A DNA stretch of 37,766 nucleotides from a virus. Position numbers and translations under genes: made by a program. Below are positions 1-29,251 of the stretch, in pieces. Numbering within the stretch: position 1 is the stretch's first letter; the number at the start of each line of letters is the position of its first letter. Below the pieces are notes generated by a model. It saw only the letters and a program-made list of their open reading frames with translations. It searched no databases and was not told the origin of the DNA. The stretch lies in the IMG/VR virus record IMGVR_UViG_3300009421_000002. One strand, given 5' to 3'.

Positions 1-123
1 ATTGGTGTTGCTATAGAAATATTGGCGGTCTTGTTATTGCTAGAAGTAACGTTGTTTCTGGTGGTGCCGGCGTGGCGGCGGTTCTGTCGAGCAAGTGGAT
101 TGCTTTATGTGTTTGCCGGGACA
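1..123. repeat. Left copy of an exact 123-nt terminal redundancy (identical to 37644-37766)
   Basis: The string attggtgttgctatagaaat...tgtgtttgccgggaca occurs at both window ends in the same orientation. No mismatch seen. Confidence 0.95.
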
Positions 124-261
124 ATTCCAATGTTTTTCGCAGTGCTTCTGCCCGCGTACTTAGACGTTAGAGATCCGATATCTCATGTTTATTTTCTGGC
201 CGGGGTTTGCGTATCAGCAGCCGGCGTTCGGATTCTGTACGGGTCTCGGAATAATGAGTGA
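1..261 (+). CDS. 3' part of the same junction-spanning membrane protein
   Basis: Frame 1 is open from base 1 (IGVAIEILAVLLLLEVTLFLVV...) to TGA 259-261. About four hydrophobic helices overall. The ORF track's 22..261 is the TTG-truncated version. Confidence 0.6.
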   Translation: MGVAIEILAVLLLLEVTLFLVVPAWRRFCRASGLLYVFAGTIPMFFAVLLPAYLDVRDPISHVYFLAGVCVSAAGVRILYGSRNNE

Positions 262-637
262 AGCCACATCAGTGGTGTCGAAAGCCGGAGCGATTGCCGG
301 CGGTATAACCGCTGCCACTTCCAAGGTAAGAACTGTTGTTGCACCAGAGCTTTGGGAATTGCCTTGGGAGTCTTTGCTTTTCGCGTCTGGCATTGCGGCG
401 TTCTTCGGCGTGGTCAGCAGGTTGCGCAAAATCGAAGAAGGCTCTCTGGATTGGAGAAGCTTCTGGACGGCCGCAATCTCAGGCGGTTGCTCAGGTCTGA
501 TCGTCTCTGCTTTGATGCTGGGAAACAAAGCCGATCCGCTCTATGTGTTCGCCGCAATGGTTGTGTTCGGACTTTTAGGCGGTAAGGGTCTTGACTTGAT
601 TCTGAATCGCGGCGCTAAACAAGTAGAGGGCAAGTGA
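254..637 (+). CDS. Holin-like membrane protein, about three TM segments
   Basis: ATG 254 overlaps the upstream stop. Hydrophobic segments: LLFASGIAAFFGVV, FWTAAISGGCSGLIVSALML, LYVFAAMVVFGLLGG. Sits in the lysis cluster. The alternative start at 185 would overlap the upstream gene by 77 nt. Confidence 0.5.
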   Translation: MSEATSVVSKAGAIAGGITAATSKVRTVVAPELWELPWESLLFASGIAAFFGVVSRLRKIEEGSLDWRSFWTAAISGGCSGLIVSALMLGNKADPLYVFAAMVVFGLLGGKGLDLILNRGAKQVEGK

Positions 638-777
638 TGACACTCTTTCTATCTCTCGGCTTCGTCCTGATGTGCAGCCAGCCGATGCCAGGGGCTAAGC
701 ATGGTTTGTTGATGATCGACCACCCGATGCTGTTGCGCTATATCCCGTTGAAGGTCAAATGCAAAGGTGACGTTTGA
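637..777 (+). CDS. 46-aa ORF with a hydrophobic N-terminus and Cys13 (MTLFLSLGFVLMCSQPMPG...); possible small lipoprotein or membrane peptide
   Basis: ATGA overlap with the upstream stop (635-637) and TTGA overlap with the downstream start (774). It fills an otherwise empty 136-nt gap. It is below the ORF-track length cutoff. VLMC is not a canonical lipobox. Confidence 0.35.
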   Translation: MTLFLSLGFVLMCSQPMPGAKHGLLMIDHPMLLRYIPLKVKCKGDV

Positions 778-1196
778 TCGTTCGACTACAACGCCTGATC
801 AGCGGTTCACATGGGACGTTTGGCGTGTTGCGCGCCCCAGGCTGGACGGCGCTCAGCATTGAATGTCCGTGGATAAATAATATTCGCAATGTGTCGTGCA
901 TTCCTGATGGGCAATATCGAGTGGTGATGTCTTACTCGCCCAAATTCCGGCGGCGCATGTATGAGATTCTTGACGTACCGGGGCGGTCGGGTATTCGCTT
1001 GCACGGCGGCAACTTAGCCGGAGACCGGACCAAAGGGCTTATTACTCACTTCTCAGGTTGCATAGGGCTTGGCATCCGACAAGGTGTGTTGAGCAACCAG
1101 CGGGCAGTACTCATATCTCAAGCGACCGTCTCGACGTTTGAGAGTCTCATGCAGCACAAAGACTTTGACCTAATCATTGAGGGCGACCATGCTTGA
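774..1196 (+). CDS. DUF5675-family protein (YkuD/L,D-transpeptidase-like H..GC signature); candidate cell-wall enzyme of the lysis cassette
   Basis: Motifs GTFGVL, SCIPDGQY, SPKF, VPGRSGIRLHGGN and SGCIGLG fit my memory of the DUF5675 pattern. TTG start preceded by AAGGTGA. Confidence 0.6.
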   Translation: MIVRLQRLISGSHGTFGVLRAPGWTALSIECPWINNIRNVSCIPDGQYRVVMSYSPKFRRRMYEILDVPGRSGIRLHGGNLAGDRTKGLITHFSGCIGLGIRQGVLSNQRAVLISQATVSTFESLMQHKDFDLIIEGDHA

Positions 1197-1803
1197 ATCT
1201 CTCGCGGGAATTGCTACGGGTGGCTGGGGGCCGATTGTTGGGTCACTGGTTGGATTCGCTGGCGGCATCGTTAATAAGTTCATGGCTTACAAAGTTCGCA
1301 AGCTTGAGATTGCCGACAATGCCAATGCTCGCGCCCACGCCAAAGATATGGCCGTCATCAATTTCAATCGAGAGAAAGAGCTGACGACGCTTGAGATTGA
1401 AGGCCGCGCAAGACAGGCATCAATTGATGGTGAGATTGACATCGAGAAGATGGACTTGGGCAATCTGGGGATCTCGATTGGCGCAGACCGAGCCGCCTAC
1501 CTGTCTGAAGACGCCCAGGCAAAGAGCAAAGTGGTGATGTACGCAATGGCGGTGGTCGATTGGGTGCGCGGCATGACGCGGCCCGTGCTGACTATCTCGC
1601 TGATCTATGGCGCATGGCACATAAACATGCTGTTGATCGGATTTCTGGAGACGCTCAACAACGGCGGATTGCCGGTCAATGTCGTGATTCAACTCACGGT
1701 TATTTCAGTTGTCACTATTCTGACGCTGGCAACGACTGCTGTGGGTTACTGGTTCGGCTCTCGTCCGACTGTGCTCAAGAAGCTGTCCGAGGTGATTAAG
1801 TGA
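1189..1803 (+). CDS. Membrane protein with GTA_holin_3TM-like architecture (N-terminal TM, charged coiled region, C-terminal TM pair)
   Basis: ATG 1189 with SD GAGGG; overlaps the upstream stop. Sequence: GIATGGWGPIVGSLVGFAGGIV, then a charged stretch, then DWVRGMTRPVLTISLIYGAW and VIQLTVISVVTILTLATTAVGYWF. Confidence 0.5.
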   Translation: MLESLAGIATGGWGPIVGSLVGFAGGIVNKFMAYKVRKLEIADNANARAHAKDMAVINFNREKELTTLEIEGRARQASIDGEIDIEKMDLGNLGISIGADRAAYLSEDAQAKSKVVMYAMAVVDWVRGMTRPVLTISLIYGAWHINMLLIGFLETLNNGGLPVNVVIQLTVISVVTILTLATTAVGYWFGSRPTVLKKLSEVIK

Positions 1804-2105
1804 CAGACAAGCAGACCGAGTACCCGTGCGGTCCGTCCTGGCTATGGTGGCGCATCCGCAAATGGATATCACCTAAATGGGCGTGCCCATGCTGCCGAGC
1901 GCATGACAAAGGCTACACAGGCCAAGGGGATCGCAAGCTAGTCGATGCTGAATTCCGCAAATGCCTGATGATTTCTGCATGGCAGACGGGCGGCAGTGAG
2001 GGCCACGCCAATCGAGAGTTGCGGGCGTTCTTAGCGGGCATGTCGGTGACGGCGTTTGGCTGGCTGTTCAAGCGCCCGCGTTGGTGGAACGATCTGGGCC
2101 GCTGA
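1800..2105 (+). CDS. Small Cys-rich protein with a prokaryotic phospholipase-A2-like motif (YPCGPS ... CPCCRAHDKGY)
   Basis: GTG 1800 with SD GAGGTGA at 1789-1795; overlaps the upstream stop. The C-x-R/A-H-D-x-G-Y core resembles the His-Asp dyad motif of bacterial/fungal secreted PLA2. At 101 aa the size fits. Confidence 0.5.
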   Translation: MTDKQTEYPCGPSWLWWRIRKWISPKWACPCCRAHDKGYTGQGDRKLVDAEFRKCLMISAWQTGGSEGHANRELRAFLAGMSVTAFGWLFKRPRWWNDLGR

Positions 2106-2110
2106 CCATT

Positions 2111-2144
2111 TTCGCAAGATCTTGAACCGCAGGGCGGGTTAAAT
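2111..2144 (+). promoter_or_regulatory. Late-promoter-like element A: TTCGCAAGATCTTG, 14 nt, TTAAAT
   Basis: Motif at 2111-2124 and hexamer at 2139-2144, in the 71-nt gap before the 1193-aa gene. The same architecture occurs at 7667 and 32950. Confidence 0.55.
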
Positions 2145-2176
2145 GGCGGCATCCAACATCCACCGCGAGATTATCA

Positions 2177-5100
2177 ATGCCGATTAATGGGCAACCGTTT
2201 AAGGTCATCATGGCCACGGTATTTGACGACCCAAATCAGGCGGGCATTCAGCCCTATCGACCCCCGTTGCCAAAGTACATGCTGGCGCTTGCGCATAATG
2301 ATTTACCCAGCATCCCGGCTGCATACACCGCAGGGACTTATCCAATCCAGTTTGTAAACGGGCGCTGGGAAACAGAAAATCAGTTAGACATTACGACCCA
2401 AGACGCAATTAATGCCAAGGCCAGCTACGATGCCAAGCTGCCGCTGTGGTCGGTGCAGGGTGCGGTTACTGAGCTAATTGCCATTGATATTGAATGCTGG
2501 ATGTTTCCGCCGTTCACTTTTGGCGCGGATCTGCAATACACCATTGACAACATTGTGGACGCAGCACAAAAGCTGCAAGCCACATTGCAACAACCTCTAA
2601 CCTTCTACAACCTGGGCCCCGCGTCCGGCTTAGTTGCGACCAAGCAATACACTGCGCAAAACGACACGCTTGCGCCATTGCGGGGAGCCAATGACTTACT
2701 AATCCCGCAAATCAATCCGCACATTGCTGCATGGACGCCTAAGGCATACGCCGTTTACGACAGCGCAGATCAGACCACTAGCGACGCTGAATGGCAATGG
2801 TGGAAAGATTGGATTTCGTTTCAGGTTTCAGAAGCGCGTCGCTTGTCACCCAATACGCCGATTTATCCTTATCTTTGGTGGGAATACGACCCGGTCGGAG
2901 ATCAAGGGACAGGCACCGCAATTCCAATTAATCGGTGGCGAGAAATGCTCGACCACTGCTTATCTGTTGCTGACGGCGTAACAATCTGGGGCGGCGGTGC
3001 GGCAGAGTGGAGCGACTCAATGCCGTGGTGGGTCGAGCTACAGAGCTTTATGTCTGATAACGGTATAGACCAACCCAAGGAATCAAAAGTGCCATCATTT
3101 ACTGCCGACACCGCCACCCTCAATGCCGTCATATCGGCGGCAGACAATCCGGCCAAACGAGCGGCGGTCAATGCGGGGCTAGGCGAGGGCACACTGACCT
3201 TTGAGCTGGTCGCCCTGAACAGCATCATCACCGGCACATTCTCCGGCTCAGTTTGGGGTGATGCGGTGCTGGCTGTAGATAATGTGCAGCTTGCCAGCGT
3301 CGGCGGGCCAGGTGGGGCTGTAGCAGACGCCACGCGACTGACCGTTACCAATGCAAGCGGGCGATTTGTTCGCTTCCCCCCTGGGGCGTATTCGTTTGTT
3401 GGCGCTGGCGGCTCGGACAACGTACAACCCGGCAATGAGATCCGGGTGACATTCCGATACGAACCTGATCCCGTAACGCCACCAGCAGACGATCTATACA
3501 TCCCGGTTGCCGAGCTAATCGCTGGCATGGAAGAAGCCAGCACGTTACAGCCCGCATTCGGTCAACACACCAACAATGAGGCGGTGATGCGGTCGCCAAC
3601 CTATGATGCTGTTGTCGGCTACCTCGGGGCGGCCCCAGCAGGCCAAGATGACTTTGATGACTTCGTTGAGGAAATTTACCCGTGGCCGTGGGCGTATCCG
3701 GCAACAGGGCATAACGTGGGCATCGGTTTACGGCTCGAGATGCGGCGGCTGAAAGTGTCGGCTTGTCGAAAGAGCACGGGGCAATGGCAAGACTTGCCCG
3801 AGTCAGGCTTAGGCCCAAACCTAGGCTGGAATGGCAACACGCAGACCGGCCCAAGCACCAAACTACGCAACGAAGCAGGCACCGGCAATTTATCTTTTGG
3901 GCCAACTACCATCAATGAAGGCGTGGAAGTCTGGCCGCCCGTTGAAACCTACAAAGACAAAGCGTTATTCCGCGATACCAAAGCCTGGGGCATTGTGTTT
4001 CAGGCGCGGGTGATTGACGACAATGGCGACCCGTACAACGGCGCGGATGGTCGCTTTGCTGTGCAGCTTGGATTTGACCAGTACGGGGGCAGAGAACGCG
4101 GCGGTGACGACAAGTATGCAGCGCCAGCCCGTTATCCTCGGACTCGCGCAGACGGCGGAAACAAGCGCTGGGATCTAGTAACAGGCGGCGACTGGACGAC
4201 CATCGGCCTAATCACAATGGAATCGTTCAAGTTCAACGAGAATCCACATGCTGGCTACGTCCCGCCCTGGCCTTATGACCGCTCGCCTTATGTCCTCACC
4301 CGCCAGCAAGTGCTGGACAATCCGCCATCGTGGGCAACAGGGGGCGGCACATCAACCACTTCATCTATGTTCGGCGGTGTAGTCGATGCCGATCCAAACT
4401 ATGTAGTCAGGCCACGGCCCGCCAATGCGGTGCGCGATCTGATGGTGGCAACGGACCCGGCATGGCTTTGCGGAGAATTCGCGACGGGTTGGCACCAATG
4501 GCTTGGCGTTAAACAAGGCGGTGTGACTTCTACGCATATGCGCCTTGTCGATTGGCGCGACAACGGCAACCCGGATGACGGTGGCATGTTCGTCGGCTCA
4601 GTCGTTAAGAGTCGGCACAACTACGAAACGGCGAGGATTGCCAGATGTGCAGCGCAGAGTAATGGGTGCCCCAAGATTCTGCCAATCTGGATGTTTCCCA
4701 AGTGGATGATTTCAGCGGCCAACATTGCAGAAGTTCAAGCGCGAGGCGGACAGGAAAATCAATTTGGGCAGATATTTAATATCACCCGATACCCGTCATT
4801 CCCTTATGGTGCACACCCGCCCGAAACGTGGGAGTACATCAAGGAGTACGTGAGGGCGATCTATCGTCCCGTGTCTGAGTTGGGCCCAAATGGTGAGCCA
4901 GGACTAGGCTACACAAAAGACAATTGGCCAGTGCTTGAGCTGGGCAACGAACAGAAGTTTGCCAGTCGCACTATCGGTGCGAGTCGTGCGTGGTTTGCGT
5001 CAAGCTCTGCTGTCAATACGCGCTGCTTTAATCTCATGACTATGCGTGAGATGAACGAAGGATTGAGAGCGCTGAAAGAAGTTGCACCGGCTGGTGTGTT

Positions 5101-5758
5101 GGTTGCTGCTGGCGGCTATGAAGGGGATTTCAACGGCAGTGTAGGCAAGACACTGGCCAATCCAAACGCTGAATACTCGTATTTCCAAGCGCAGATGCTG
5201 ACCGATGACAATCACGGCGGACTTGGCATTGATCATGTCGACATTGTTTTTGCTCATCCGTATATGTACGCCTACAACCCAGAGCGCTCGCAAGTCGAGA
5301 TTGACAATTGCAGAGCGCAAATCGAGTGGCTTGCCGCGCATTTGGGAAGGCCTGAAATTGCAGCGATACCATTGCATTGCAACGAAACCGGGCACGAGTC
5401 GCCAAGCGGAGTTGATAACACTTACGGCACCATCACGTATTTGATCAATCAGCAAGGCGCAGCGTCCGCTTATGCCACCACTGCTCGCAACATGAAGCGG
5501 TCAGTTTTAATTTGGGTAGCCAATGGCTCAAAACAGAATTGCTTAGGCGGTAATCACTTTGTCGACCGTCCCTACGGAAACCCGCGTGATTCATATGGCG
5601 AGCGCCAGACTTACGGTGCCCCATCAGAAGTGCCCGAGCTGATCGCTGCAAACCAGTACGGCAATCAGGTGGTCAATAAAGTGGTGCGGCAAGCATACCA
5701 ATTATCAGACGGGCAAATTGTTTGCTACTTTGAAGATGGCACAACCTTACAGGCATAA
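2177..5758 (+). CDS. 1193-aa protein with two glycosidase-like TIM-barrel regions (GH56/hyaluronidase-like N-terminus; clan GH-A-like C-terminus); probable polysaccharide depolymerase
   Basis: N-terminal motifs: IAIDIECW, LTFYNLGP, IYPYLWWEY, DGVTIWGGG. C-terminal motifs: LELGNEQ (Glu codon 4949-4951), AHPYMY, CNETGHE (Glu codon 5384-5386). The two Glu residues are 145 residues apart. Confidence 0.6.
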   Translation: MPINGQPFKVIMATVFDDPNQAGIQPYRPPLPKYMLALAHNDLPSIPAAYTAGTYPIQFVNGRWETENQLDITTQDAINAKASYDAKLPLWSVQGAVTELIAIDIECWMFPPFTFGADLQYTIDNIVDAAQKLQATLQQPLTFYNLGPASGLVATKQYTAQNDTLAPLRGANDLLIPQINPHIAAWTPKAYAVYDSADQTTSDAEWQWWKDWISFQVSEARRLSPNTPIYPYLWWEYDPVGDQGTGTAIPINRWREMLDHCLSVADGVTIWGGGAAEWSDSMPWWVELQSFMSDNGIDQPKESKVPSFTADTATLNAVISAADNPAKRAAVNAGLGEGTLTFELVALNSIITGTFSGSVWGDAVLAVDNVQLASVGGPGGAVADATRLTVTNASGRFVRFPPGAYSFVGAGGSDNVQPGNEIRVTFRYEPDPVTPPADDLYIPVAELIAGMEEASTLQPAFGQHTNNEAVMRSPTYDAVVGYLGAAPAGQDDFDDFVEEIYPWPWAYPATGHNVGIGLRLEMRRLKVSACRKSTGQWQDLPESGLGPNLGWNGNTQTGPSTKLRNEAGTGNLSFGPTTINEGVEVWPPVETYKDKALFRDTKAWGIVFQARVIDDNGDPYNGADGRFAVQLGFDQYGGRERGGDDKYAAPARYPRTRADGGNKRWDLVTGGDWTTIGLITMESFKFNENPHAGYVPPWPYDRSPYVLTRQQVLDNPPSWATGGGTSTTSSMFGGVVDADPNYVVRPRPANAVRDLMVATDPAWLCGEFATGWHQWLGVKQGGVTSTHMRLVDWRDNGNPDDGGMFVGSVVKSRHNYETARIARCAAQSNGCPKILPIWMFPKWMISAANIAEVQARGGQENQFGQIFNITRYPSFPYGAHPPETWEYIKEYVRAIYRPVSELGPNGEPGLGYTKDNWPVLELGNEQKFASRTIGASRAWFASSSAVNTRCFNLMTMREMNEGLRALKEVAPAGVLVAAGGYEGDFNGSVGKTLANPNAEYSYFQAQMLTDDNHGGLGIDHVDIVFAHPYMYAYNPERSQVEIDNCRAQIEWLAAHLGRPEIAAIPLHCNETGHESPSGVDNTYGTITYLINQQGAASAYATTARNMKRSVLIWVANGSKQNCLGGNHFVDRPYGNPRDSYGERQTYGAPSEVPELIAANQYGNQVVNKVVRQAYQLSDGQIVCYFEDGTTLQA

Positions 5759-5760
5759 CA

Positions 5761-7392
5761 ATGGCTCAAGTAGCACTACAAGATTCGAGAGCGTCGACCT
5801 GGGATGGGGCGGCATTCAATACGACAATCACAACAGCGCCAGGGCTAGCGGGCGAACATCAGCTGATTGTCATGACACATTTTTCTGGCACTGTCGCTGC
5901 GCCTGAGTTAAGCGGCTGGCAAAAAGGTGGCACGGTCACTTTGGGCAGCAACAGCTTCACCGCTTACAAAAGAGTGTTGACGGCTGATGTCACCTCGGGC
6001 GGTGTGCAGGCGAGCTTTGCTCAGGCAGTCGAAGGTGAGGCATGGTGCGGCTCGTTCAATGGTGCTATTGGAACTATTACGCCATTCAACGTGCTTGAGT
6101 ACACCGCCACCGCCAGACCCATTGGCGCAGTGACCGCACAAGCGGCGAACGCTTTGCAGTTGTTTGCGGGTGCGACAGATGCTTACCCGAGGCAAGCCGA
6201 CCCATCGACTGGCTGGACAGAATCAAGCGACCGAGCGCAATACGCGGGCGCGGGCGGATTGGCCTTGCATGTCATGCACCGGCCTATTGGCGCAGGCGCT
6301 TCGGGTGCGTCGTCTTACGACATTCGATTGACAGATATAGACGGCGGCACTGGCGGCACTGGCGCAGGAACGCGCACGATGGCGCTCAACATTGCCATTG
6401 AAGAAATTGAGCAGACTAACGTTGCTACGTTTGATGTGCTGGCGGAATTCCCGTCTATTGCGGTGACCGTCACCCCGGATCGCAACACGGTCACCGACAA
6501 CGAAACCGCATCAATCAATGCAAACGTGGTTGGCTCAGACCAGGGCGTGACATACAGCATCGTCCAGGGCGTTGGAACAGTCACCGCGCAAGGTGTCGTC
6601 ACACCAACAGAGCCAGGAACGATTACAGTGCGGGCGGCTAGTGTCGAAGCGCCCTCGGTGTTTGCTGACGCTGTGATTGATGTGCTGCCGGTCGTTCCGA
6701 CAATCAATCCGGTGGCCGCGTCGGTGAGCCCAGCAGCGCTGAGCGGCACTGCCGAGCCTAACGCCACGGTTCAACTGCAGATCTACGGCAACACGATCAC
6801 GACAAGCGCCAACGGTTCGGGTCAGTGGGCCACCAATGTGGCATTGCCCCCTGGCGACTACGAGCTGTTAGCCACGCAAACCAAAAATGGCAAAACCAGT
6901 GGATCGGCCGGACCTGTCGCGGTGCAAGTGCTCGATGATGATGTGGGCGTAACCCTTGACCCGCCCGTCATGTATGCCATTGCAAGCGGTGAGGGCGACA
7001 TCACGATTGCCGGCACCGGGGCAGTTGGTGCGACCGTGCGTCTCAGGTTAAACGGTGCTTTGCTGCCTAGCATGGCCACTGTGGATAGCAATGGCAATTG
7101 GAGCGTGCTGCTTTCGCTGCCCGTGGGTGGTTACAGTGTTGTCGCGTATCAGGTCAAAGACTTGACGACCAGCAACGTCACCGAGCCCAAGCTGTTCAAT
7201 GTTTACATTCCTGTTGCCCCGCCTGCCCCAACAGAATGGGGAGCCCGTCACAATGAAATGACCACGGACAAGCGCGGCGATCTACCAAAACCCCCTGTTA
7301 CTGCCGATGAGTCGCTGGGGGTCGGCTCAGTCAAGACACCCTTTCGCACCCCGAAAGCATGGCCAAAAAAAGGGATTCATAACAAGGAATAG
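5761..7392 (+). CDS. 543-aa structural protein with one Big_2-like Ig domain and two further tandem Ig-like repeats
   Basis: VTVTPDRNTVTDNETASINANVVGSDQGVTYSIV...GTITVRAAS is a typical Big_2 pattern. It is followed by two repeats of the form GTAEPNATVQL...ANGSGQWAT...PGDYELLATQ and GTGAVGATVRL...SNGNWSV...VGGYSVVAYQ. Confidence 0.6.
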   Translation: MAQVALQDSRASTWDGAAFNTTITTAPGLAGEHQLIVMTHFSGTVAAPELSGWQKGGTVTLGSNSFTAYKRVLTADVTSGGVQASFAQAVEGEAWCGSFNGAIGTITPFNVLEYTATARPIGAVTAQAANALQLFAGATDAYPRQADPSTGWTESSDRAQYAGAGGLALHVMHRPIGAGASGASSYDIRLTDIDGGTGGTGAGTRTMALNIAIEEIEQTNVATFDVLAEFPSIAVTVTPDRNTVTDNETASINANVVGSDQGVTYSIVQGVGTVTAQGVVTPTEPGTITVRAASVEAPSVFADAVIDVLPVVPTINPVAASVSPAALSGTAEPNATVQLQIYGNTITTSANGSGQWATNVALPPGDYELLATQTKNGKTSGSAGPVAVQVLDDDVGVTLDPPVMYAIASGEGDITIAGTGAVGATVRLRLNGALLPSMATVDSNGNWSVLLSLPVGGYSVVAYQVKDLTTSNVTEPKLFNVYIPVAPPAPTEWGARHNEMTTDKRGDLPKPPVTADESLGVGSVKTPFRTPKAWPKKGIHNKE

Positions 7393-7395
7393 GCG

Positions 7396-7665
7396 ATGGA
7401 CGGCGAAGTAAACAGCGATGATGAAGCAGCCATTCCTACCGGGCTATCCGACGAAGCCCAGCGCATGGCGCAGCTCTATCATCAGATTTTCGAGATAGAC
7501 CAGCGCGGGGCGGCGGTGCTTGAAGATCTGATGAACCGCTTTAAAAGCCAGACGCCAGCGGTCGAGGGCGGCATTGATGCGGTGCTGACCACGTACCGGA
7601 ATGCAGGCCGGACAGAGGTCATAGACTTCGTGATTCGGCGTATCAACCAAGGGCGTGAACGCTAA
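7396..7665 (+). CDS. Bbp19-like small protein
   Basis: LYHQIFEIDQRGAAVLEDLMNRF...AGRTEVIDFVIRRI fits the Bbp19-family pattern as I remember it. It sits immediately upstream of the scaffold and capsid genes, as I recall for BPP-1. Confidence 0.5.
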   Translation: MDGEVNSDDEAAIPTGLSDEAQRMAQLYHQIFEIDQRGAAVLEDLMNRFKSQTPAVEGGIDAVLTTYRNAGRTEVIDFVIRRINQGRER

Positions 7666-7666
7666 T

Positions 7667-7700
7667 TTCGCAAGATCTTGCACAGGACACGCCCTATTAT
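7667..7700 (+). promoter_or_regulatory. Late-promoter-like element B: TTCGCAAGATCTTG, 14 nt, TATTAT
   Basis: Motif at 7667-7680 and hexamer at 7695-7700, in the gap before the scaffold gene. Confidence 0.6.
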
Positions 7701-7729
7701 CTGGCCCATATTGATAACCGGATAAGCCC

Positions 7730-8620
7730 ATGTTCATGCAAAACCTTCGCGCATACCTGTTCCAAGATGAAGCTGGCGACGGCACTGGCGCGGGCGAAGG
7801 TGGTGGCGGTGGTGATTCTGGGGATAGCGGCGAAAGCGCTGCACTCGACAAAGGGTCGGCGGGCAGTGAAGGCGAAGGGGGTACGCCCGCCGACCAGGCA
7901 GCATCAAAGACAGAAACCGCGCTAAGCAAGAACGCATCGACCGAAGATCCCTTTCACGGCACCCCGGAGAAGTACCGGGTGATGCGTGAGGATGGCTCCC
8001 TGGACGAGCAGGCGACGCTGGCAAAGACCGCGACCGCTTACAACGATCTATCGAAAAAGATGGGTCAGGCCGATGGGGTTGCCCCAGCTGCACCAGGTGA
8101 CTATGAGATCAACATGCCCGGCGAAATGGGCAAAGAGTTTGACCAAGAAGATCCCGGCTTCAAAGAATTTCTGACCAATGCGCACGCAGCTGGATTCACT
8201 CAGAAGCAGCTCGATACCACGATGGAAGCGTTCGGTAAGACCATCGGCAAGCTCACGGGTGACATTGCGATCCTCAATGAACAAGAGTGCAACGCACAGC
8301 TTGAGGAAGTCTGGAAAACGCCAGACGAGCGGGCTGCAAATTATCAGGCAGCATTCCGAGCGTTTGAGTCATTCTCGGGTGAGCGCTTCGACCAGATGCA
8401 CGCTAAGTATGGCAACGATCCAGACATGATTTGGATGATGGCCGAAGTGGGTAAGCAGATGAAAGAGGGCTCGCCGCCACCGAATGGAGATGATCCGGTC
8501 AATACCGGGGGCGTCTCGATGACCGAGCTGGTCCGCGATCTGGGCAGCAAAGACAAGGCAGTACGTGAAAAGGCGCAGGCCGCATGGTCAAACCTATACG
8601 GACAGCCAGAAAAGCAGTAG
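7730..8620 (+). CDS. Scaffolding (capsid assembly) protein
   Basis: Acidic, Gly/Ser-rich N-terminus with a helical remainder. Lies directly upstream of the major capsid gene. About 296 aa. Confidence 0.6.
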   Translation: MFMQNLRAYLFQDEAGDGTGAGEGGGGGDSGDSGESAALDKGSAGSEGEGGTPADQAASKTETALSKNASTEDPFHGTPEKYRVMREDGSLDEQATLAKTATAYNDLSKKMGQADGVAPAAPGDYEINMPGEMGKEFDQEDPGFKEFLTNAHAAGFTQKQLDTTMEAFGKTIGKLTGDIAILNEQECNAQLEEVWKTPDERAANYQAAFRAFESFSGERFDQMHAKYGNDPDMIWMMAEVGKQMKEGSPPPNGDDPVNTGGVSMTELVRDLGSKDKAVREKAQAAWSNLYGQPEKQ

Positions 8621-8761
8621 CAATACACACTGGCCCGCGTGGCGGCGGACACCCAGTCAAAGCCCGACAGGCGCTGTCAGCAGTCGCAACAGCGTCGGAG
8701 TTTCCAGGCCCGGTATCGGACACCCTGTAAGCGGCTCCGTTAATACTTTGGAGTTACCACA

Positions 8762-9637
8762 ATGGCAGCATCACACGATTCAATCGACCAAGCATTCGTT
8801 ACCGCCTGGGACAATGCAATCCGAGAAACCGCGCAACAGTCCGAGTCGCGCCTATTGGCGTGCGTGCTCAATGAAGGCACGGTCGAGGGCGAAGCCTTCA
8901 CCCATAACTTCATGGGCTCAACCGAGATGGACGAAGTAAACGACCGTCTTGGAGACACCATCTGGGGCGCAGTCGAGCACAAGACTCCCATCGCACCGAT
9001 GCAGGACTTCTACAAAGCTCTGCCACTGGATCGCAAAGACATCCCGCGCATGAAGGTCAACCCGGTAGCGGGTGGCAATTACATGGGCACCCTGATCAAA
9101 GCTAAGAACCGCAAAGTAGACGACATCATCTACAAGGCAGCGATTGGCACGCAGGGCTTGAAGGATGGCTCCACCATCGTATTGCCTAACACGCAAAAGA
9201 TTCTGGCCGGTGGCACTGGTCTTACCAAGGGCAAACTGATCACGGTTCGCAAGATCTTCCGAGTCAATGAGAACGACCAGCACGCGGGCGAGGAATTGGT
9301 CATGCTCTATGACGATGCCATGCTTGAAGATGTGTTGGCCGACACCACGTTGACCAGCGCTGACTTTATGGCGGTCAAGATGTTGCAGGCTGGCGATGTG
9401 TCAGGCAAGTGGATGGGCTTCGAGTGGATTCCCTACAACAAGTTCAATCTAAACGGCACGGTGCGCACTGGTTTGGCCATGACTAAAACGGCGGTTAAGT
9501 TTGGCATGGGTTACGAGCGCGGCAATGTCTCAGAGCGCAACGACAAGCAGGACGCTTACCAAGTGTCTTATGCCTTCTCTGGTGCGGCACTACGCACTGA
9601 GGAAAAAGGTGTTGTCGCGGTCGAGATCGAGCAGTAA
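8762..9637 (+). CDS. Major capsid protein
   Basis: 291 aa, positioned between the scaffold and cement genes. Strong SD context TTTGGAGTTAccACAATG. Overall pattern is reminiscent of podoviral HK97-fold capsid families. Confidence 0.8.
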   Translation: MAASHDSIDQAFVTAWDNAIRETAQQSESRLLACVLNEGTVEGEAFTHNFMGSTEMDEVNDRLGDTIWGAVEHKTPIAPMQDFYKALPLDRKDIPRMKVNPVAGGNYMGTLIKAKNRKVDDIIYKAAIGTQGLKDGSTIVLPNTQKILAGGTGLTKGKLITVRKIFRVNENDQHAGEELVMLYDDAMLEDVLADTTLTSADFMAVKMLQAGDVSGKWMGFEWIPYNKFNLNGTVRTGLAMTKTAVKFGMGYERGNVSERNDKQDAYQVSYAFSGAALRTEEKGVVAVEIEQ

Positions 9638-9702
9638 TCACAGCACTTTAGCGGCCCGGTTCAGTCCTGGTCACTGACGCCAAACCTTTTGGAGTTAAGA
9701 CA

Positions 9703-10152
9703 ATGGCAGAAGTAAACAGCAAACAGGCAGCTAACAAAGCAGCCAACAAGCGCAACAGATCGGCAGATTACAACCCGGTTCGTTGTTTGGTCATTACCAC
9801 GCCTGACGCATGGACTGCCGCCGATGGCGACACGATGGCAACAGGTCAAAAATTGCCGCCAGAAGCGCGACCGATTGGAGTTAAAGTAGGCTGTGCGGCA
9901 GGCGCAGCAAGCTCTACCGTATCAGTCGGCCATCGTAAGCTGTCTGACGGTTCGGGCGCGGTTGCTGCATCGTTGGGCTCTCAAGCCATCAATGCGGCTG
10001 GTACGTTCGATGTGGACAACGGCACGCTGATGGCTAACGGCGCGGATGCGGTCACGCCTGATTATGAGGTCGAGGTATTTCTGACCTTTGGCGGTGCCAA
10101 TCCAACCGCTAACCAAGATCTGCGCATCGAAGTGTTGTTCGTCGCGCCGTAA
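9703..10152 (+). CDS. Capsid decoration/cement protein candidate
   Basis: 149 aa directly after the capsid gene. Shares a near-identical translation-initiation region with it. Followed by an intrinsic terminator. Confidence 0.5.
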   Translation: MAEVNSKQAANKAANKRNRSADYNPVRCLVITTPDAWTAADGDTMATGQKLPPEARPIGVKVGCAAGAASSTVSVGHRKLSDGSGAVAASLGSQAINAAGTFDVDNGTLMANGADAVTPDYEVEVFLTFGGANPTANQDLRIEVLFVAP

Positions 10153-10190
10153 GATATTTTGAGTCCTCCCTCCCGCTAATGCGGAGTTAT

Positions 10191-10215
10191 GCCCGGCTTC
10201 GCGCTGGGCATTTTT
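10191..10215 (+). terminator. Intrinsic terminator after the capsid/cement genes
   Basis: Hairpin GCCCGGC-ttcgc-GCTGGGC (one G-U pair) followed by ATTTTTAT. Confidence 0.7.
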
Positions 10216-10230
10216 ATATCAGGTGAGAGC

Positions 10231-10794
10231 ATGACACCGGAACAAATATGTAGCGCTGCCCTGATCGATCTAGGTGGGCAACCCATTACAACGTTTACTC
10301 AATCAACGATTGCCATCACCGCCGGGACGCTTTACCCGTTGGAACGCGCCAAGGTGATGCGGGCGAAACCGTGGACGTTTCTGCGGTTGGTTGCCAAGAG
10401 CAACAAAACCGGAACAGAGACGGAAGGGTTCACGCTGCCCAACAGATTCTTTTTCCCAGCCAACTTTATTCGGTTGTGGGAAGTTACAGACATGAGCAAT
10501 TGCCGCATTGAGTATGAATTAGGAAGCGCCGGGATTTTATATGCCCGACCGGAAAGCATCATGCTGACCTACTCCCACGACCTGGCCGAAGAATTTTGGC
10601 CGGACTGGTTTAATGAATTGATGGTCGCTGCCATGAAAGGTCGGCTTGCCTACGCCCAGACCAATAGCCGCACAATGACCGCGCAGTGCAAAGAGGAATA
10701 CGAATACGCGCTGAGGACTTACGCGGGCATTGAAGCTACCGAGCATGAAGCCGAAGAATTTGGGCGTTCGTCTGACTGGCTGGGAGTTCGCTAA
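10231..10794 (+). CDS. Tail tubular protein A / adaptor (T7 gp11-like)
   Basis: ATG 10231 with SD GGTGAGAG. The N-terminus MTPEQICSAALIDLGGQPITTF fits the adaptor-family opening. It precedes the nozzle gene. The ORF-track start at 10189 lies inside the terminator. Confidence 0.6.
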   Translation: MTPEQICSAALIDLGGQPITTFTQSTIAITAGTLYPLERAKVMRAKPWTFLRLVAKSNKTGTETEGFTLPNRFFFPANFIRLWEVTDMSNCRIEYELGSAGILYARPESIMLTYSHDLAEEFWPDWFNELMVAAMKGRLAYAQTNSRTMTAQCKEEYEYALRTYAGIEATEHEAEEFGRSSDWLGVR

Positions 10795-10796
10795 TA

Positions 10797-13004
10797 ATGG
10801 CGCAATCACGCTATCAGCCTATCGTCTCTTTTGTCTCGGGTGAGCTAACGCCACTACTGCGCGGTCGGTTTGATATGGCTCAGTATCGCCAGGGCTGCGA
10901 AGTGCTGCGCAACATGATGCCGTTGCCATTTGGCGGGGCAAAGCGCCGTGCAGGCACAGAGTTTTTGAATCGCGCCGACTCTGACGCAACCGGCAGTCGC
11001 TCTCGCCTGATCCCGTTTCATGTGTCAGTGACCGAATCGTATGTGATTGCAATTGGTCCAATCAACATAGTGGTTTACAACGGTACCGATGGCACTGTGG
11101 CGGCCACCATCCCGACGCCTTTTGGCAACGCTTACGAATCTTTGGACTATGAGCAGGCTGGTTTAACGCTGATTTTCACCGGGCCAAACACTAAGCCGAC
11201 ACGACTGGTCAAAACATCAAGCGGCTGGGGTATTGGGGCCATTCGGTTCTCTCCTGAGCCAACGGCGGTGCTTCCCGATAGCTACCCCGCGTCATCGTTT
11301 TCGCCCGCTAGCAGCAATCAAAACGGGTCGACAGTTGTTTTTACTGGCACGCCTCCTAGTGGCTCACTTAATCGGACAATCACACAAGGCAACAGCCTGG
11401 GGGTTGTTCAGTTTGTTTTTGCCGGTAGTTTCAACGTCATTGTTGAGACTGGTTTTGATCCGGCATCAACCTTGCCGTTTGAATTTTCCGGGCCATTGCA
11501 ATGGTCAATCACGCCAACAGGGTCAAACAGAGTCGGCGGCATTATGAACGTGTCGACAAACGGCGAATGGGATGCGTCTCGGATTGGCTCGGTGATCAAC
11601 ATCAACGGCGGCAAGATCCTAATTACCGGACTGGTCGACGCCTCGAACGTTACAGGCGAAGTATTGCAAGAGCTGGTGGATACCACTGGCGCGACAGGTG
11701 CATCATGGTCGCTTGAGTCGAAGATCTGGGGCGGTGGCACGAAAGGTTATCCGAGGGCGGTTGCATTCCATGAGCAGCGCCTACTGTTTGCTGGCTGGAA
11801 CGGCAACCCTACCGGCATCGTCGCCAGCGCTATCGGAATCCCGTTTGATTTTCGCGTAACCGAGTTGGCAGAGGATGGCTATGCGTACGCGCTGCAAACC
11901 AGCAAGCAAACGAGCATTCAATATCTCGTCAGCGATCAAGAGCTAATTGTTCACACCGATGAAGGCGAGTACGCGCTACTGCCCAGCAACAACGAAGCGC
12001 TATCGAGCGTCAATATCCCGAGAGCAAGACCGCAGTCGAAGCATGGTTGCCGAAGAATCAAACCGATCTCGGTCAATGAAGAACCTGTTTTTGTTCGCTT
12101 TGACGGTCGCAGAACTATTTCAATGGGCTATGACGGCGGCGCATCTGCTTACGTGCCCGCAGATATTGCCATTCTGGCAGAGCATTTGTTCAAGACACCC
12201 ATTATTGATATGACCTTTGCCAGGACGCCAGTCCCAACGATTTATTGTGTATTGGCCGATGGCACGATGGCTTGCTGCACTTATGATCGCAGTCAGAGCG
12301 TTGTCGCGTGGTGGCCGTGGGACACCAATGGAAAAATCGAATCTGTCACTGCGGTCTCGAGCGGTGAGCGCGATGAGGTCTATATGTGCTGCACTCGCAT
12401 TGGTGATACGCATCGAGTCATTGAACGGGTGCGGGATGATTGGTATCCCCGCAATGATGAAGCAGCAGCGGGTGACATAAACAAACGCATTGGCGTGATG
12501 CTTGACTGCGCAACGCTTGAGATTAGCCCGGCGTTTTTAGTCGAAGTTGATATGAACCCAATCTTTCGCAGCGTGGTCATGACCGCTGTTGCTGATGGGT
12601 ACGACGCTGGAGAGCGAGCAGTGCCGCTAGACAACACCTATCAAATATCAAACTTCGCGGATCGGATTGCAGTGGGGTTCAACTACACCAGCGAGCTTGC
12701 CCCCATGCCCAACGAAGCGGCCACACAATCAGGGACAGGCCAGGGGCGACCAGTACGCACCGGCCCTGCCATGCTGAAAGTACACAACAGCATCGGCGGC
12801 ACAGTGAACGATCTAAACCAGATTGGCCCGTCACCAGTACACTCGGACGATTCACGCGCGACGCCAATTGAATTACTAACCGGCGAATCAGATATGACGC
12901 TGCAAGGGTGGAAGCGCGACGAGCCCAGCATGAGGATTAAGCAGGTCAGGCCGTACCCGCTTCACGTCCTATTCATTTCGGAACGGCTGAGTAACGCGCC
13001 ATGA
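10797..13004 (+). CDS. Tail tubular protein B / nozzle (T7 gp12-like)
   Basis: 735 aa. The N-terminus SFVSGELTPLLRGRFDMAQYRQGCEVLRNMMPLPFGGAKRRAGTEF matches the conserved opening of podoviral nozzle proteins. Confidence 0.7.
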   Translation: MAQSRYQPIVSFVSGELTPLLRGRFDMAQYRQGCEVLRNMMPLPFGGAKRRAGTEFLNRADSDATGSRSRLIPFHVSVTESYVIAIGPINIVVYNGTDGTVAATIPTPFGNAYESLDYEQAGLTLIFTGPNTKPTRLVKTSSGWGIGAIRFSPEPTAVLPDSYPASSFSPASSNQNGSTVVFTGTPPSGSLNRTITQGNSLGVVQFVFAGSFNVIVETGFDPASTLPFEFSGPLQWSITPTGSNRVGGIMNVSTNGEWDASRIGSVININGGKILITGLVDASNVTGEVLQELVDTTGATGASWSLESKIWGGGTKGYPRAVAFHEQRLLFAGWNGNPTGIVASAIGIPFDFRVTELAEDGYAYALQTSKQTSIQYLVSDQELIVHTDEGEYALLPSNNEALSSVNIPRARPQSKHGCRRIKPISVNEEPVFVRFDGRRTISMGYDGGASAYVPADIAILAEHLFKTPIIDMTFARTPVPTIYCVLADGTMACCTYDRSQSVVAWWPWDTNGKIESVTAVSSGERDEVYMCCTRIGDTHRVIERVRDDWYPRNDEAAAGDINKRIGVMLDCATLEISPAFLVEVDMNPIFRSVVMTAVADGYDAGERAVPLDNTYQISNFADRIAVGFNYTSELAPMPNEAATQSGTGQGRPVRTGPAMLKVHNSIGGTVNDLNQIGPSPVHSDDSRATPIELLTGESDMTLQGWKRDEPSMRIKQVRPYPLHVLFISERLSNAP

Positions 13005-13456
13005 TCAGAACCGCCAACCACGCAGACGCCACGATGATTGCCGCGATGGCTTACGACATGCACAAGCAAAGCCGGTTTGCCACTGACTATCCTTTCGATC
13101 ATGACAAGTTTGCGCAGATGCTTGCCGTGGCGATTGACTCGGACACTTATTGCGTTCGTGTGTCGATTGAGCAGGACGGCACGATTAACGGCGGGCTGAT
13201 TGGTTTTGTGTCGCCGCAATTCTTTAGCGCTGCGATGGTCGCTCAGGATGTCGGCATGTTTGTTGTGCCATCGGCGCGGCAGGCTGGCATCGGCAAAGAT
13301 CTGGCCACCGCGTTTTATGAGTGGGCGTGCGATGTGGGCGCGGTCGATTGTGAGATGGGCTGCAATACCGGCGTGGCTCGATCTGGGTTTGGTCAGTTGA
13401 TGGATCACATGGGGTTTGAGAATGTTGGCGATCTGTTTTCTAAGAGGTGTCGATAA
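13001..13456 (+). CDS. GNAT-family N-acetyltransferase
   Basis: Motif A R-x-x-G-x-G (ARQAGIGKDL) follows a beta strand VGMFVV. C-terminal GFENVG. ATGA overlap with the nozzle gene. Confidence 0.8.
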   Translation: MIRTANHADATMIAAMAYDMHKQSRFATDYPFDHDKFAQMLAVAIDSDTYCVRVSIEQDGTINGGLIGFVSPQFFSAAMVAQDVGMFVVPSARQAGIGKDLATAFYEWACDVGAVDCEMGCNTGVARSGFGQLMDHMGFENVGDLFSKRCR

Positions 13457-13953
13457 TGTGTGTGTCGCTATTAGTCTTTTCGACGGTCGTTGCTGCGGGC
13501 TCAGCCATTCAGCAGGGCAAGAATGCCGAAGCGTATGGTGAGTACCAAGCGAAGCAAGCGAACGAGCAAGCCAAAGCCAAAGAAGGTGAGGGGCGCATCC
13601 TGGCAGAGAAGTCGCGCCGCGCTGGTCGTATTGCTCGCTCAGAGATTGCCACGCAAGCCGGGGCTTCGGGGCTGGACATCAACAGCCAGGTATTCCAAAA
13701 CGCTGAAATGCAAACCAGTGAAGCCTATGAGGCTGACGCACTGGCGGCGATCTATTCCGGGCAGAACGCGGGGCGCTCGATCCGGGCGGGCGGTGCTTAT
13801 GCTGAAAGCCAGGGCAATGATGCAAGGCGCTCGGCAATGATGAGCGGGGCAGCAGCGGCATTGAATGGTTGGTCTGGCTACCGGGCAAACTCAGCAGCAT
13901 CTAGTCAGGCATCGCAACGTCGCGAGCTGGCAATCAATGAGTCAAGAGGCTAA
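13456..13953 (+). CDS. Internal virion protein, small, with N-terminal TM segment
   Basis: TAATG overlap; SD AAGAGG at 13442-13447. CVSLLVFSTVVAAGSAI hydrophobic start, then an A/Q/G-rich region. Occupies the T7 gp13/14 position. Confidence 0.55.
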   Translation: MCVSLLVFSTVVAAGSAIQQGKNAEAYGEYQAKQANEQAKAKEGEGRILAEKSRRAGRIARSEIATQAGASGLDINSQVFQNAEMQTSEAYEADALAAIYSGQNAGRSIRAGGAYAESQGNDARRSAMMSGAAAALNGWSGYRANSAASSQASQRRELAINESRG

Positions 13954-13955
13954 GC

Positions 13956-16118: not shown

Positions 16119-16119
16119 C

Positions 16120-20429: not shown

Positions 20430-20434
20430 CGCCC

Positions 20435-20800
20435 ATGCGGGCAGATCAATTTGAAAAATTAGTTGAGCTACAAGAGACCCTGATGGACGTTTTTCTGGCT
20501 GAGGTCAAGCCGGATGAATGGCCAGGGGCGGGGATTCACATTCGCGAAATGTCCGCGCCCCAGCGTGGTGATCGCCTCTGGTGTAAGAAGAACGCCAGCC
20601 ACACGCTGTCCCTTGTCACAAAACTCAGTCAGATCATCGTCACTGAACGTCGCGTAGTGGCGGGTGATCCAACGTTGCCGGACGACGATAGCATTCAATC
20701 AGAGGCCGACATTCAATCGACTGAGGACCGCATGATTGATGACTACGAGGCGTTAGCGACTGACACGATCAGACACCTTGTCAAGCGAAGCCGGGAGTAA
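20435..20800 (+). CDS. Candidate small terminase subunit
   Basis: 121 aa directly upstream of, and overlapping, the large terminase gene. Acidic C-terminal half. Called by position only. Confidence 0.35.
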   Translation: MRADQFEKLVELQETLMDVFLAEVKPDEWPGAGIHIREMSAPQRGDRLWCKKNASHTLSLVTKLSQIIVTERRVVAGDPTLPDDDSIQSEADIQSTEDRMIDDYEALATDTIRHLVKRSRE

Positions 20801-27995: not shown

Positions 27996-28025
27996 TGTGA
28001 CTCCGTTTGTGTTGACTGAGCCTTA

Positions 28026-28054
28026 ATCCTATTTCAACACTGAAACGATAGCAA
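28026..28054 (-). promoter_or_regulatory. Leftward early promoter candidate (-35 TTGCTA, 17-nt spacer, -10 TAGGAT)
   Basis: -35 is the complement of 28049-28054 and -10 the complement of 28026-28031. The spacer contains the palindrome TTTCA-acac-TGAAA. Confidence 0.5.
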
Positions 28055-28094
28055 GCTATTTCAGAAAAGAATTTGTCAAATCTGAAACGCTAGC
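28032..28094. promoter_or_regulatory. Operator set: CTGAAACGATAGC (28040-28052), CTGAAACGCTAGC (28082-28094), inverted partial copy GCTATTTCAG (28055-28064), palindrome TTTCAacacTGAAA (28032-28045)
   Basis: Two 13-mers differ at one base and lie 42 bp apart, each in a promoter spacer. The TTTCA/TGAAA half-sites recur. Confidence 0.6.
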
Positions 28095-28101
28095 CGATAA
28101 T
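28073..28101 (+). promoter_or_regulatory. Rightward early promoter (-35 TTGTCA, 17-nt spacer, -10 GATAAT)
   Basis: -35 at 28073-28078 and -10 at 28096-28101. The ATG at 28109 lies only 7 nt after the -10, which implies a leaderless or near-leaderless mRNA. Confidence 0.65.
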
Positions 28102-28108
28102 CGGTCGC

Positions 28109-28300
28109 ATGAAATTACGTGAACACTTACAAAGAACACGAGCCACGCTCATGGCGATGGACAAACAGCAGACCGGCAAGATCTGCGGCATCACTGGCAT
28201 GAGCGCCACCACGTTCTGGCGGATTCAGACGGGCAAGAAAATCCCTGATCTGTGGGAGTACGAAGATTTATTGAAGGCTATTGGGAGGGTTAGCAAATGA
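28109..28300 (+). CDS. Cro/CI-type HTH transcriptional regulator, 63 aa
   Basis: QTGKICGITGMSATTFWRIQTGKKIP is a typical HTH. Adjacent to the repeated operators. No SD, consistent with leaderless translation. Confidence 0.7.
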   Translation: MKLREHLQRTRATLMAMDKQQTGKICGITGMSATTFWRIQTGKKIPDLWEYEDLLKAIGRVSK

Positions 28301-28530: not shown

Positions 28531-28574
28531 TCAGATAAGGGTCAGCCGGTAGTGCCCGTCAACAACCACCCAAC

Positions 28575-28600
28575 ACCGGCAGCCGGGGCAGCGGTTTTTT
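28575..28600 (+). terminator. Possible weak intrinsic terminator
   Basis: ACCGGC-agccggg-GCagCGGT followed by TTTTTT, 45 nt after the stop at 28530. Confidence 0.35.
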
Positions 28601-29242: not shown

Positions 29243-29251
29243 TTATCCACA
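29243..29251 (+). promoter_or_regulatory. Perfect consensus DnaA box TTATCCACA, inside the inverted repeat GCTTGTGG-N14-CCACAAGC (29225-29254)
   Basis: Exact 9-mer match, 20 nt upstream of ATG 29272. It is a single copy, so a chance match cannot be excluded. Confidence 0.4.

Follow-up and report, generated by a model that had tools for sequence, protein, structure and literature searches.

The window analyzed here is the whole 37,766-nucleotide (nt) stretch of viral DNA in IMG/VR record IMGVR_UViG_3300009421_000002, in which a palindromic 14-mer lies at three places, each ahead of a putative late gene block. The 13-mer TCGCAAGATCTTG shared by the three copies has exactly three occurrences in the genome, at 2112, 7668, and 32951, on the plus strand every time, and is the sole 13-mer with at least three occurrences genome-wide. 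When up to two mismatches were allowed, seven matches were found against 1.28 expected, and none of 100 shuffled sequences reached seven. Behind all three copies of the 14-mer, a hexamer resembling a −10 promoter element begins after a gap of 14 nt, an arrangement that an earlier note on this DNA, made from the letters alone, had described and that was confirmed at each position. Hexamers with at least four of six matches to TATAAT cover 2.1% of window positions; the probability of three such hexamers at one common offset is ~9e-6 per offset and 6e-5 across seven offsets. Given the excess of matches, the unique 13-mer, and the shared hexamer offset, the repeat was not ascribed to chance. Homology of the flanks past the motif is limited to a short A/T-rich stretch on the left.

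All three copies and their hexamers are on the plus strand. Copy 1 (TTCGCAAGATCTTG, 2111 to 2124) lies 5 nt past the stop codon of a 101-amino-acid (101-aa) gene and 66 nt before the 1193-aa gene, whose ATG is at 2177. Its hexamer, TTAAAT (2139 to 2144), has the T at position 6 without the A at position 2, and its right arm (TTGAA) is the most degenerate of the three; for these two reasons, copy 1 is probably the weakest. Copy 2 (TTCGCAAGATCTTG, 7667 to 7680, right arm TTGCA) stands 1 nt past the stop codon of a Bbp19-like gene and 63 nt before a scaffold-like gene with its ATG at 7730, and its hexamer, TATTAT (7695 to 7700), matches TATAAT at five of six positions. Copy 3 (14-mer ATCGCAAGATCTTG, 32950 to 32963) has an A-rich stretch before the palindrome, which here is a perfect one of 14 bp (CGCAAGATCTTGCG, i.e., CGCAA-GATC-TTGCG, 32952 to 32965). 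The hexamer TATCCT (32978 to 32983), with A at position 2 and T at position 6, begins 12 nt beyond the right arm of copy 3 and is followed by AGGAG and an ATG at 33034. This copy is embedded in the final codons of a gene for a small helix-turn-helix (HTH) protein (32666 to 32995), where it codes for G-K-S-Q-D-L-A-P.

Two further plus-strand sequences resemble the element. A near-copy absent from the earlier note (TTCGCAAGATCTTC, 9246 to 9259, 13 of 14 matches) lies within the capsid gene and is not followed by a −10-like hexamer; because it codes for the conserved capsid residues V-R-K-I-F-R with common codons, it was taken as probably a coding coincidence. A degenerate palindrome with three mismatches (CGCCC-GATT-TTGCG, 20398 to 20411), 24 nt ahead of the start codon of the small terminase gene terS, may be a relic or a chance match. 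A simple sigma-70 promoter scan detected no sigma-70-type promoter at any of the three window sites; over positions 1 to 12000, the same scan returned 1 site against 7.3 expected.

Three late transcription units are plausible, all on the plus strand. Copy 3 would head the first, composed of a 121-aa gene (33034 to 33399), a 68-aa gene, a T7-type portal gene, and 174-aa and 538-aa genes, followed by lysis genes across the circular junction; this order was also found in relatives. Copy 1 would head the second (2177 to 7665), with the 1193-aa gene, a 543-aa gene, and the 89-aa Bbp19-like gene, and copy 2 the third (7730 to 22439), which runs from the scaffold-like gene through the genes for capsid, tail tubes A and B, an acetyltransferase, and internal virion proteins to terS and the large terminase gene terL. 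The genes at 2177 to 5758 and 5761 to 7392 form an unannotated variable cassette, the second of them bearing a Big_6 domain, and most likely encode tail fibers. The copies had been said to sit at late-module boundaries and to bracket exchangeable modules. The first statement holds ahead of the portal operon, the fiber cassette, and the scaffold and capsid genes. The second is half right: copy 1 precedes the variable fiber cassette, but copy 2 follows the conserved Bbp19-like gene and is not at a cassette edge.

Conservation in related phages, which the earlier note had proposed as a check, was not found for the sequence itself and was found for the type of element and its position. None of the relatives examined carries TCGCAAGATCTTG at an equivalent place, and an exact scan of viral contigs with the 14-mer gave more than 120 unrelated single-copy matches; only one of those contigs (L010) has a portal gene, a distant one, and its match falls in coding sequence. 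Many relatives have matches to CGCAAGATCCTG ~1.9 kb ahead of the capsid gene, but these encode I-R-K-I-L inside portals and were rejected. Homologues of the 109-aa HTH gene, by comparison, were found in 35 fetched prophages, always ~0.85 kb upstream of the portal gene. Most HTH-bearing relatives have a GTCGG-GAWW-CCGAC palindrome just past or overlapping the HTH stop codon, followed by a GATACT-like hexamer, which is the position of copy 3 in the window; in L128, the palindrome falls within the homologous HTH codons, which read G-K-G-R-D-S-V-P.

The corresponding 12-mer, TCGGGAWWCCGA, has 45 exact occurrences on the plus strand and none on the minus strand in 1.26 Mb of relatives, against 0.3 expected; these fall in 34 loci, 27 of which hold at least two. 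In 34 related prophages and Yersinia phage YeP5, the GTCGG-GAWW-CCGAC palindrome is present in 2 to 4 copies per genome, always in late-gene orientation, and the copies are placed ahead of the portal operon, the lysis genes, and terS and 150 to 200 nt before the capsid start codon. In YeP5, which is annotated, the four copies are found ahead of the lysis genes, portal operon, capsid gene, and terS, and the early region has no copy. This canonical element is near-identical from Acinetobacter to Burkholderia hosts. In many relatives, the capsid-proximal copy comes directly after a hairpin and T-run, which gives a predicted terminator-then-promoter arrangement. A second, tandem variant, CCGGGAAACCGA, was seen in enterobacterial relatives (near 9942 in L156, L158 to L162, L166, and L173 and at 21491 in L193, which is YeP5), ~110 nt beyond the capsid-proximal copy, with ~55 nt left to the capsid start codon.

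A profile was made from 56 nonredundant instances of the element in relatives. Conservation was found in the palindrome, in a T two bases to its left, and, after 13 to 14 nt without conservation, in an A at +28 (50 of 56 instances) and a T at +32 (49 of 56). The last two are hexamer positions 2 and 6 (nAnnnT). This is the signature of the sigma-70 −10 element, in which positions 2 and 6 are the most important bases, and the conserved A(−11) and T(−7) of the profile are, by their sequence, a sigma-70-type pattern. The center of the palindrome is GAAA, GATT, or GAAT in nearly all relatives. The 56 instances have neither a TG or extended −10 before the hexamer nor a TTGACA-like −35, and upstream of the palindrome no conserved columns lie past ~6 nt. 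Both the promoter scan and this profile support the claim that no −35 lies at proper spacing. Readings with sigma-54, extracytoplasmic function sigma factors, or a short-spacer −35 were judged by eye and do not fit.

With the hexamer set at −12 to −7, the family palindrome spans −39 to −26 and is centered at −32.5; spacers counted from the right arm are 12 nt in some family members and 13 nt in others. The window hexamers are 1 nt nearer to the palindrome than the family mode, so that the window center is at ~−31.5. The nAnnnT pattern fits two of the three window hexamers (copies 2 and 3), and the third has the T alone. No domain of an RNA polymerase or sigma factor was detected in any scanned window open reading frame (ORF), in line with the earlier remark that no phage RNA polymerase was seen. 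A dedicated class of late promoters, read by a phage activator or an alternative sigma factor, had been proposed: the comparative evidence favors such a class, with a −10 and no −35, read with the aid of a phage-encoded factor, and the alternative sigma factor was not supported, with no sigma domain found and a −10 pattern of the sigma-70 type.

The arms of the palindrome vary between genomes and are the same at each copy within a genome, and the GANN center is kept in all variants. Most family members carry GTCGG/CCGAC arms, represented by GTCGGGAAACCGAC, as the counterpart of the window arms represented by CGCAAGATCTTGCG (CGCAA-GATC-TTGCG, three copies). The other variants include GGCGA-GATT-TCGCC in L138 and GCCGA-GATT-TCGGC in L139 (two copies each), GGCGG-GATT-CCGCC in L182 and L185 (two copies each), CTCAG-GAAC-CTGAG with a near-copy in L129 (two copies), GTCAG or GTCGG with CTGAC in L165 (three copies), and xxCAA-GATT-CCGAC in L148 (two copies). 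Since the arms change between phages and yet agree within each, they point to a phage-specific trans-acting factor as their reader.

On the grounds of gene linkage (in 35 relatives, the gene adjoins the first copy on its upstream side), covariation of a helix residue with the arms, and an Xre-like modeled fold, the 109-aa protein encoded at 32666 to 32995 (plus strand) is the best candidate for a late activator. Its gene is the last of the rightward early operon, and its predicted recognition helix is NSTVRSWW. Among the aligned HTH homologues, the covarying residue is in helix 3, directly ahead of a conserved W/Y at the helix end. All 21 loci with canonical arms (GTCGG or GTCAG) have G at this residue. 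The window, L138, L139, and L148 have S, and in all four the innermost arm base is A in place of G. L182 has D, L174 has E, and loci in which no canonical element was detected have Y, S, H, M, or L. The covariation does point to this HTH protein over any other, and the sequences make a one-residue specificity code possible. The earlier note had named two HTH proteins as candidates; the one encoded at 28109 to 28300 is Cro-like, lies beside the unlike repeats CTGAAACGNTAGC, and was set aside, and linkage and covariation speak for the one encoded at 32666 to 32995.

An AlphaFold2 model of the HTH protein made with 47 sequences (predicted local distance difference test score, 90.8) has four helices, with helix 3 in the recognition position. 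Foldseek gave Xre/Cro/cI-type matches with probabilities to 0.99, template modeling (TM) scores of ~0.6, and weak E values of 0.15 to 0.7, including SinR on DNA, C.EcoT38IS, C.AhdI, C.BclI, P22 c2, cI, and ImmR; the modeled fold thus resembles the Xre/Cro/cI type. Domains of this type bind palindromes of 14 to 18 bp as dimers. At the sequence level, the protein matches phrog_16553 at 1e-10. It has no Pfam or NCBIfam assignment, the matches to HTH_23, HTH_3, and HTH_31 being subthreshold, and its homologues are named hypothetical protein or transcriptional regulator in their sources. Single-protein searches of viral contigs with the HTH protein and with the portal gave no match, nor did a word-indexed protein search with the HTH protein as the lone query; an alignment query did find the homologues.

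These results suggested an explanation that we consider probable, namely, that the three copies are the upstream halves of activator-dependent late promoters read by the HTH protein and that the window is an arm-specificity variant. Each promoter would consist of a 14-bp palindrome at approximately −39 to −26 (5-bp arms around a GANN center near −32), a nonconserved spacer of 12 to 13 nt from the right arm (14 nt from the 14-mer), and a −10 hexamer of the sigma-70 type, the −35 and the extended −10 both being absent. Host RNA polymerase alone would be unable to use such promoters. The HTH protein would be made as the last product of the early operon, and a dimer of it, through its Xre-like domain, would bind the palindrome at the −35 position and recruit or stabilize the polymerase. 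Binding would switch on the three late units, i.e., portal to lysis, the fiber cassette, and scaffold through terminase. The design would be common to a temperate T7-like podophage family without an RNA polymerase of its own, in which the window phage would combine variant arms with a matching change in the recognition helix. From sequence comparison, we infer that transcription is initiated at these sites, with the HTH protein as their binder and as an activator, not a repressor. Activation was preferred because the promoters have neither a −35 nor an extended −10, because the regulator gene is in the lytic early operon, and because the immunity-region repeats CTGAAACGNTAGC differ in sequence from the late element.

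Several observations weigh against this explanation. The window hexamers are 1 nt closer to the palindrome center than the family mode, and copy 1 combines a poor −10 (TTAAAT, no A at position 2) with a degenerate right arm. Repression could be served equally well by a site over the −35 region, the PHROGs label of the HTH family is "transcriptional repressor," and the structural matches of the model are weak by E value (0.15 to 0.7). The covariation is uncorrected for shared ancestry and comprises ~3 to 5 independent variant lineages. The closest capsid relatives, L003 and L005, have no recognizable element at the two positions covered, their HTH regions being outside the DNA compared. Alcaligenes phage Piluca (L192, MZ326864) lacks the palindrome and has at equivalent positions a nonpalindromic repeat, CACCCAACAAA, in four plus-strand copies (at 7, 19459, 22691, and 24200) before terS, the portal operon, the capsid gene, and the tail-knob gene; in three of the four cases, a hairpin and T-run come immediately before the start codon. 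By sequence, this repeat looks like a different late-control element at the same positions, and the family is therefore not uniform.

If the palindrome were instead a repressor operator, the HTH protein or another phage protein would sit over the −35 of otherwise active late promoters and keep the late genes off in the lysogen or in early infection, in the manner of a stoperator or late-gene operator. The −35 region is the classic location for a repressor, and, besides the phrog_16553 label, most of the fold matches (SinR, cI, c2, and ImmR) are repressors. Without a −35 or extended −10, however, the promoters would be weak unaided and leave little to repress. The element is also conserved across phages with differing immunity regions, the immunity repeats of the window differ in sequence, the regulator gene ends the early lytic operon rather than lying in a lysogeny module, and each genome has just 2 to 4 sites, each heading a late unit. 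We consider such an operator unlikely, while giving it some weight.

The sites may be late promoters, as in the favored explanation, and the palindrome may nonetheless be read by another factor, either a host protein or the phage 121-aa or 68-aa protein, with the HTH protein serving in packaging or early regulation. The near-identity of the canonical element from Acinetobacter to Burkholderia would fit a conserved host factor, and the weak matches of the HTH protein include families of terminase small subunits. A host factor does not explain arms that vary between phages and match within a phage, and the arm changes track the recognition-helix residue of the 32666-to-32995 protein. A role of that protein as the small terminase was rejected, because a separate TerS adjoins TerL both in the window (20435 to 20800, plus strand) and in the Piluca annotation. 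Another reader is, on this evidence, also improbable.

Much less probable still is a hairpin, in RNA or single-stranded DNA, with a 5-bp stem and GANN loop, or a DNA site for recombination or packaging at module boundaries, in place of a promoter. The arm changes preserve complementarity, as compensatory changes in a stem would, the center is often GAAA, which makes a GNRA loop, and window copy 1 precedes the variable cassette. Neither version explains the conserved −10 signature at a fixed distance downstream. The stems of window copies 1 and 2 would have only 3 to 4 bp, A-C mismatches and G-U pairs both occur, and instead of drifting freely, the arm sequence has been kept even between phages that are very distant. 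There is no flank homology beyond the motif, and copy 2 is away from the cassette edge. Least credible is that the central GATC, in which the earlier note saw a possible link to Dam methylation or replication, renders the promoters Dam sensitive and thereby ties late transcription to replication: GATC is central in all three window copies and unavoided in the genome (232 occurrences against 159 expected, commoner than chance, with no shuffle reaching 232), but the center in nearly all relatives is GAAA, GATT, or GAAT, and GATC, being sporadic (L165 and L173), does not characterize the family. The scanned window ORFs had no methyltransferase domain, and the likely hosts are Burkholderiales, which usually lack Dam.

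The predicted design matches a known kind, in which a phage activator replaces −35 recognition at late promoters. Geometrically, its nearest parallel is lambda CII, a small HTH activator of PRE, PI, and PaQ whose 14-bp site, TTGC-N6-TTGC, straddles the −35 with its center near −32, at promoters with a −10 and no usable −35. The site found here is at a like position (approximately −39 to −26). The CII site is, however, a direct repeat and not an inverted one, CII drives lysogeny promoters rather than late structural genes, and the HTH protein has no Pfam match to the CII family. In logic it is closest to Mu C, a dimeric HTH activator from the end of the preceding stage, for which a dyad site replaces the −35 and the −10 is kept (Plys, PI, PP, and Pmom). 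The Mu site is centered at ~−43 rather than near −32, and the Mor/C family is unrelated to the Xre-like fold modeled here; neither the HTH protein nor its homologues had a Mor/C match in Pfam. The nearest parallel in fold is with the controller proteins of restriction-modification systems, small Xre-type dimers that bind palindromic C-boxes over the −35 and activate by touching sigma-70. Three of them (C.AhdI, C.BclI, and C.EcoT38IS) are among the closest structural matches to the HTH protein model (TM score, ~0.55 to 0.6), with no family match of the HTH protein at the sequence level. They differ in their setting, restriction-modification operons, and in their C-boxes, which are two adjacent dyads serving both activation and repression.

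Phages P1 (Lpa) and P2/P4 (Ogr/Delta) have few late promoters, with a −10, no −35, and an inverted repeat read by a phage activator. The repeat is centered near −22 in P1, and in P2 it is TGT-N12-ACA near −55, with Ogr and Delta being zinc-finger proteins. The late-control motif and protein type of P1 and P2 are absent here, with no zinc-finger activator domain in the scanned ORFs. At T4 middle promoters, a MotA box near −30 takes the place of the −35, the −10 is retained, and AsiA remodels sigma region 4; that box is nonpalindromic and needs AsiA, and no homologue of MotA or AsiA was detected. Stoperators of cluster A mycobacteriophages are many asymmetric sites for the immunity repressor, as opposed to three sites here, and the immunity repeats CTGAAACGNTAGC of the window are unlike the late element. 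Promoters for T7-type polymerases are ~20 bp long and extend to the start site; conservation here ends 13 to 14 nt before the hexamer, and no polymerase domain was found in any scanned ORF.

T7-like podophages without an RNA polymerase must use the host enzyme for their late genes, and how this temperate group does so was not found in the searchable literature. A full-text search for the element in an incomplete collection gave no phage paper, and the papers on YeP4 and APSE phages made no mention of these promoters. The comparison yields a compact promoter grammar and a named candidate activator, and the natural series of arm and helix variants is a ready-made experiment on how specificity is determined. 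Late units in poorly annotated prophages would become predictable from sequence, and activator-promoter pairs could serve as orthogonal switches. The general principle, in which a phage activator stands in for the −35, is already well known; what would be gained is a new family with a specificity code rather than a new mechanism. We offer tentatively, as a possibility, that the HTH protein represents an undescribed family of late activators in widespread temperate podophages of beta- and gammaproteobacteria with T7-type virions and no RNA polymerase. Such a protein would replace −35 recognition where sigma region 4 binds, and one helix residue would reset its specificity (at the innermost arm base, G would be read by G and A by S). 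The window phage would then be a natural specificity swap that insulates its late genes from related coresident prophages.

The window ends are identical (bases 1 to 123 and 37644 to 37766), which means that the ~37,643-bp genome is either circularly assembled or terminally redundant; the putative late units cross the junction. Gene assignments came from PHROG and Pfam searches. The virion module is T7-like, with portal (33617 to 35245; PF12236, 2.7e-95), scaffold-like gene (7730 to 8620), capsid (8762 to 9637), tail tubes A and B, internal virion proteins, and a T7-type TerL beside TerS, all the coordinates given being on the plus strand. The 1193-aa protein had no relative in Pfam, PHROG, or PDB, and PDB sequence searches with the 1193-aa, 538-aa, and 121-aa proteins gave no match. 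The genes between the lysis block and the Bbp19-like gene (2177 to 7392 in the window, 3201 to 8600 in L003, and 1146 to 4380 in L005) are mutually unrelated except for ~145 aa at the C-terminal end of the last gene, and by sequence they look like an exchangeable receptor-binding cassette.

The early rightward operon begins at a good sigma-70-type promoter (TTGTCA-17-GATAAT, 28073 to 28101, 10 of 12 matches) beside the Cro-like HTH gene and ends with a Holliday-junction resolvase gene and then the 109-aa HTH gene. The divergent immunity-type region (27996 to 28108) holds two copies of CTGAAACGNTAGC, at 28039 and 28081, the first within a longer palindrome; these are probably operators for a Cro-like/repressor pair, distinct in sequence from the late element. 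Between the 77-aa and 153-aa early genes, 740 nt without an ORF (28531 to 29271) contain a long hairpin and T-run at ~28868 to 28950. This segment could be a noncoding RNA, a terminator, or an origin. The Rfam and tRNA scans gave no match, here included. A minus-strand block carries RecT and a PDDEXK exonuclease, and the sole matches of a 367-aa minus-strand gene (24364 to 25467) were to PHROGs of unknown function. The search gave no integrase domain for the window, though related phages are integrated prophages.

Relatives of the window capsid are found in Burkholderiales prophages and, further off, in Pseudomonas, Acinetobacter, and Enterobacterales, and the sequences make Burkholderiales the likely hosts of the window phage. 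Isolated relatives include Yersinia phages YeP4 to YeP6, Piluca, and Acinetobacter phage TPWB-05. The nearest capsids, those of L003 and L005, are 62 to 63% identical to that of the window; L007 is 100% identical to the window and adds no independent information, and a megablast search of positions 1 to 12000 against a phage collection gave no match. Compared with the family layout, the window has its lysis and fiber genes between the portal and Bbp19-like genes, as in L003 and L005. Besides the portal operon, its copies of the element precede the scaffold-like gene and the fiber cassette. The capsid gene and terS have none ahead of them, and in place of the full copy that relatives carry at terS, the window has only the degenerate CGCCC-GATT-TTGCG.

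A conserved hairpin (GGCCCGC-GTGGCG-GCGGACACCC) was observed in the capsid 5′ leader at 8631 to 8655 of the window. It had no Rfam match. In relatives, it lies a few bases past the predicted capsid-proximal start (e.g., 9846 to 9900 in L141 and 9872 to 9926 in L161). Across 21 sequences, six of the eight predicted pairs have compensatory changes, and conservation extends to the loop TGGC and the A-A-CC after it. The window retains this hairpin despite having no promoter copy there.

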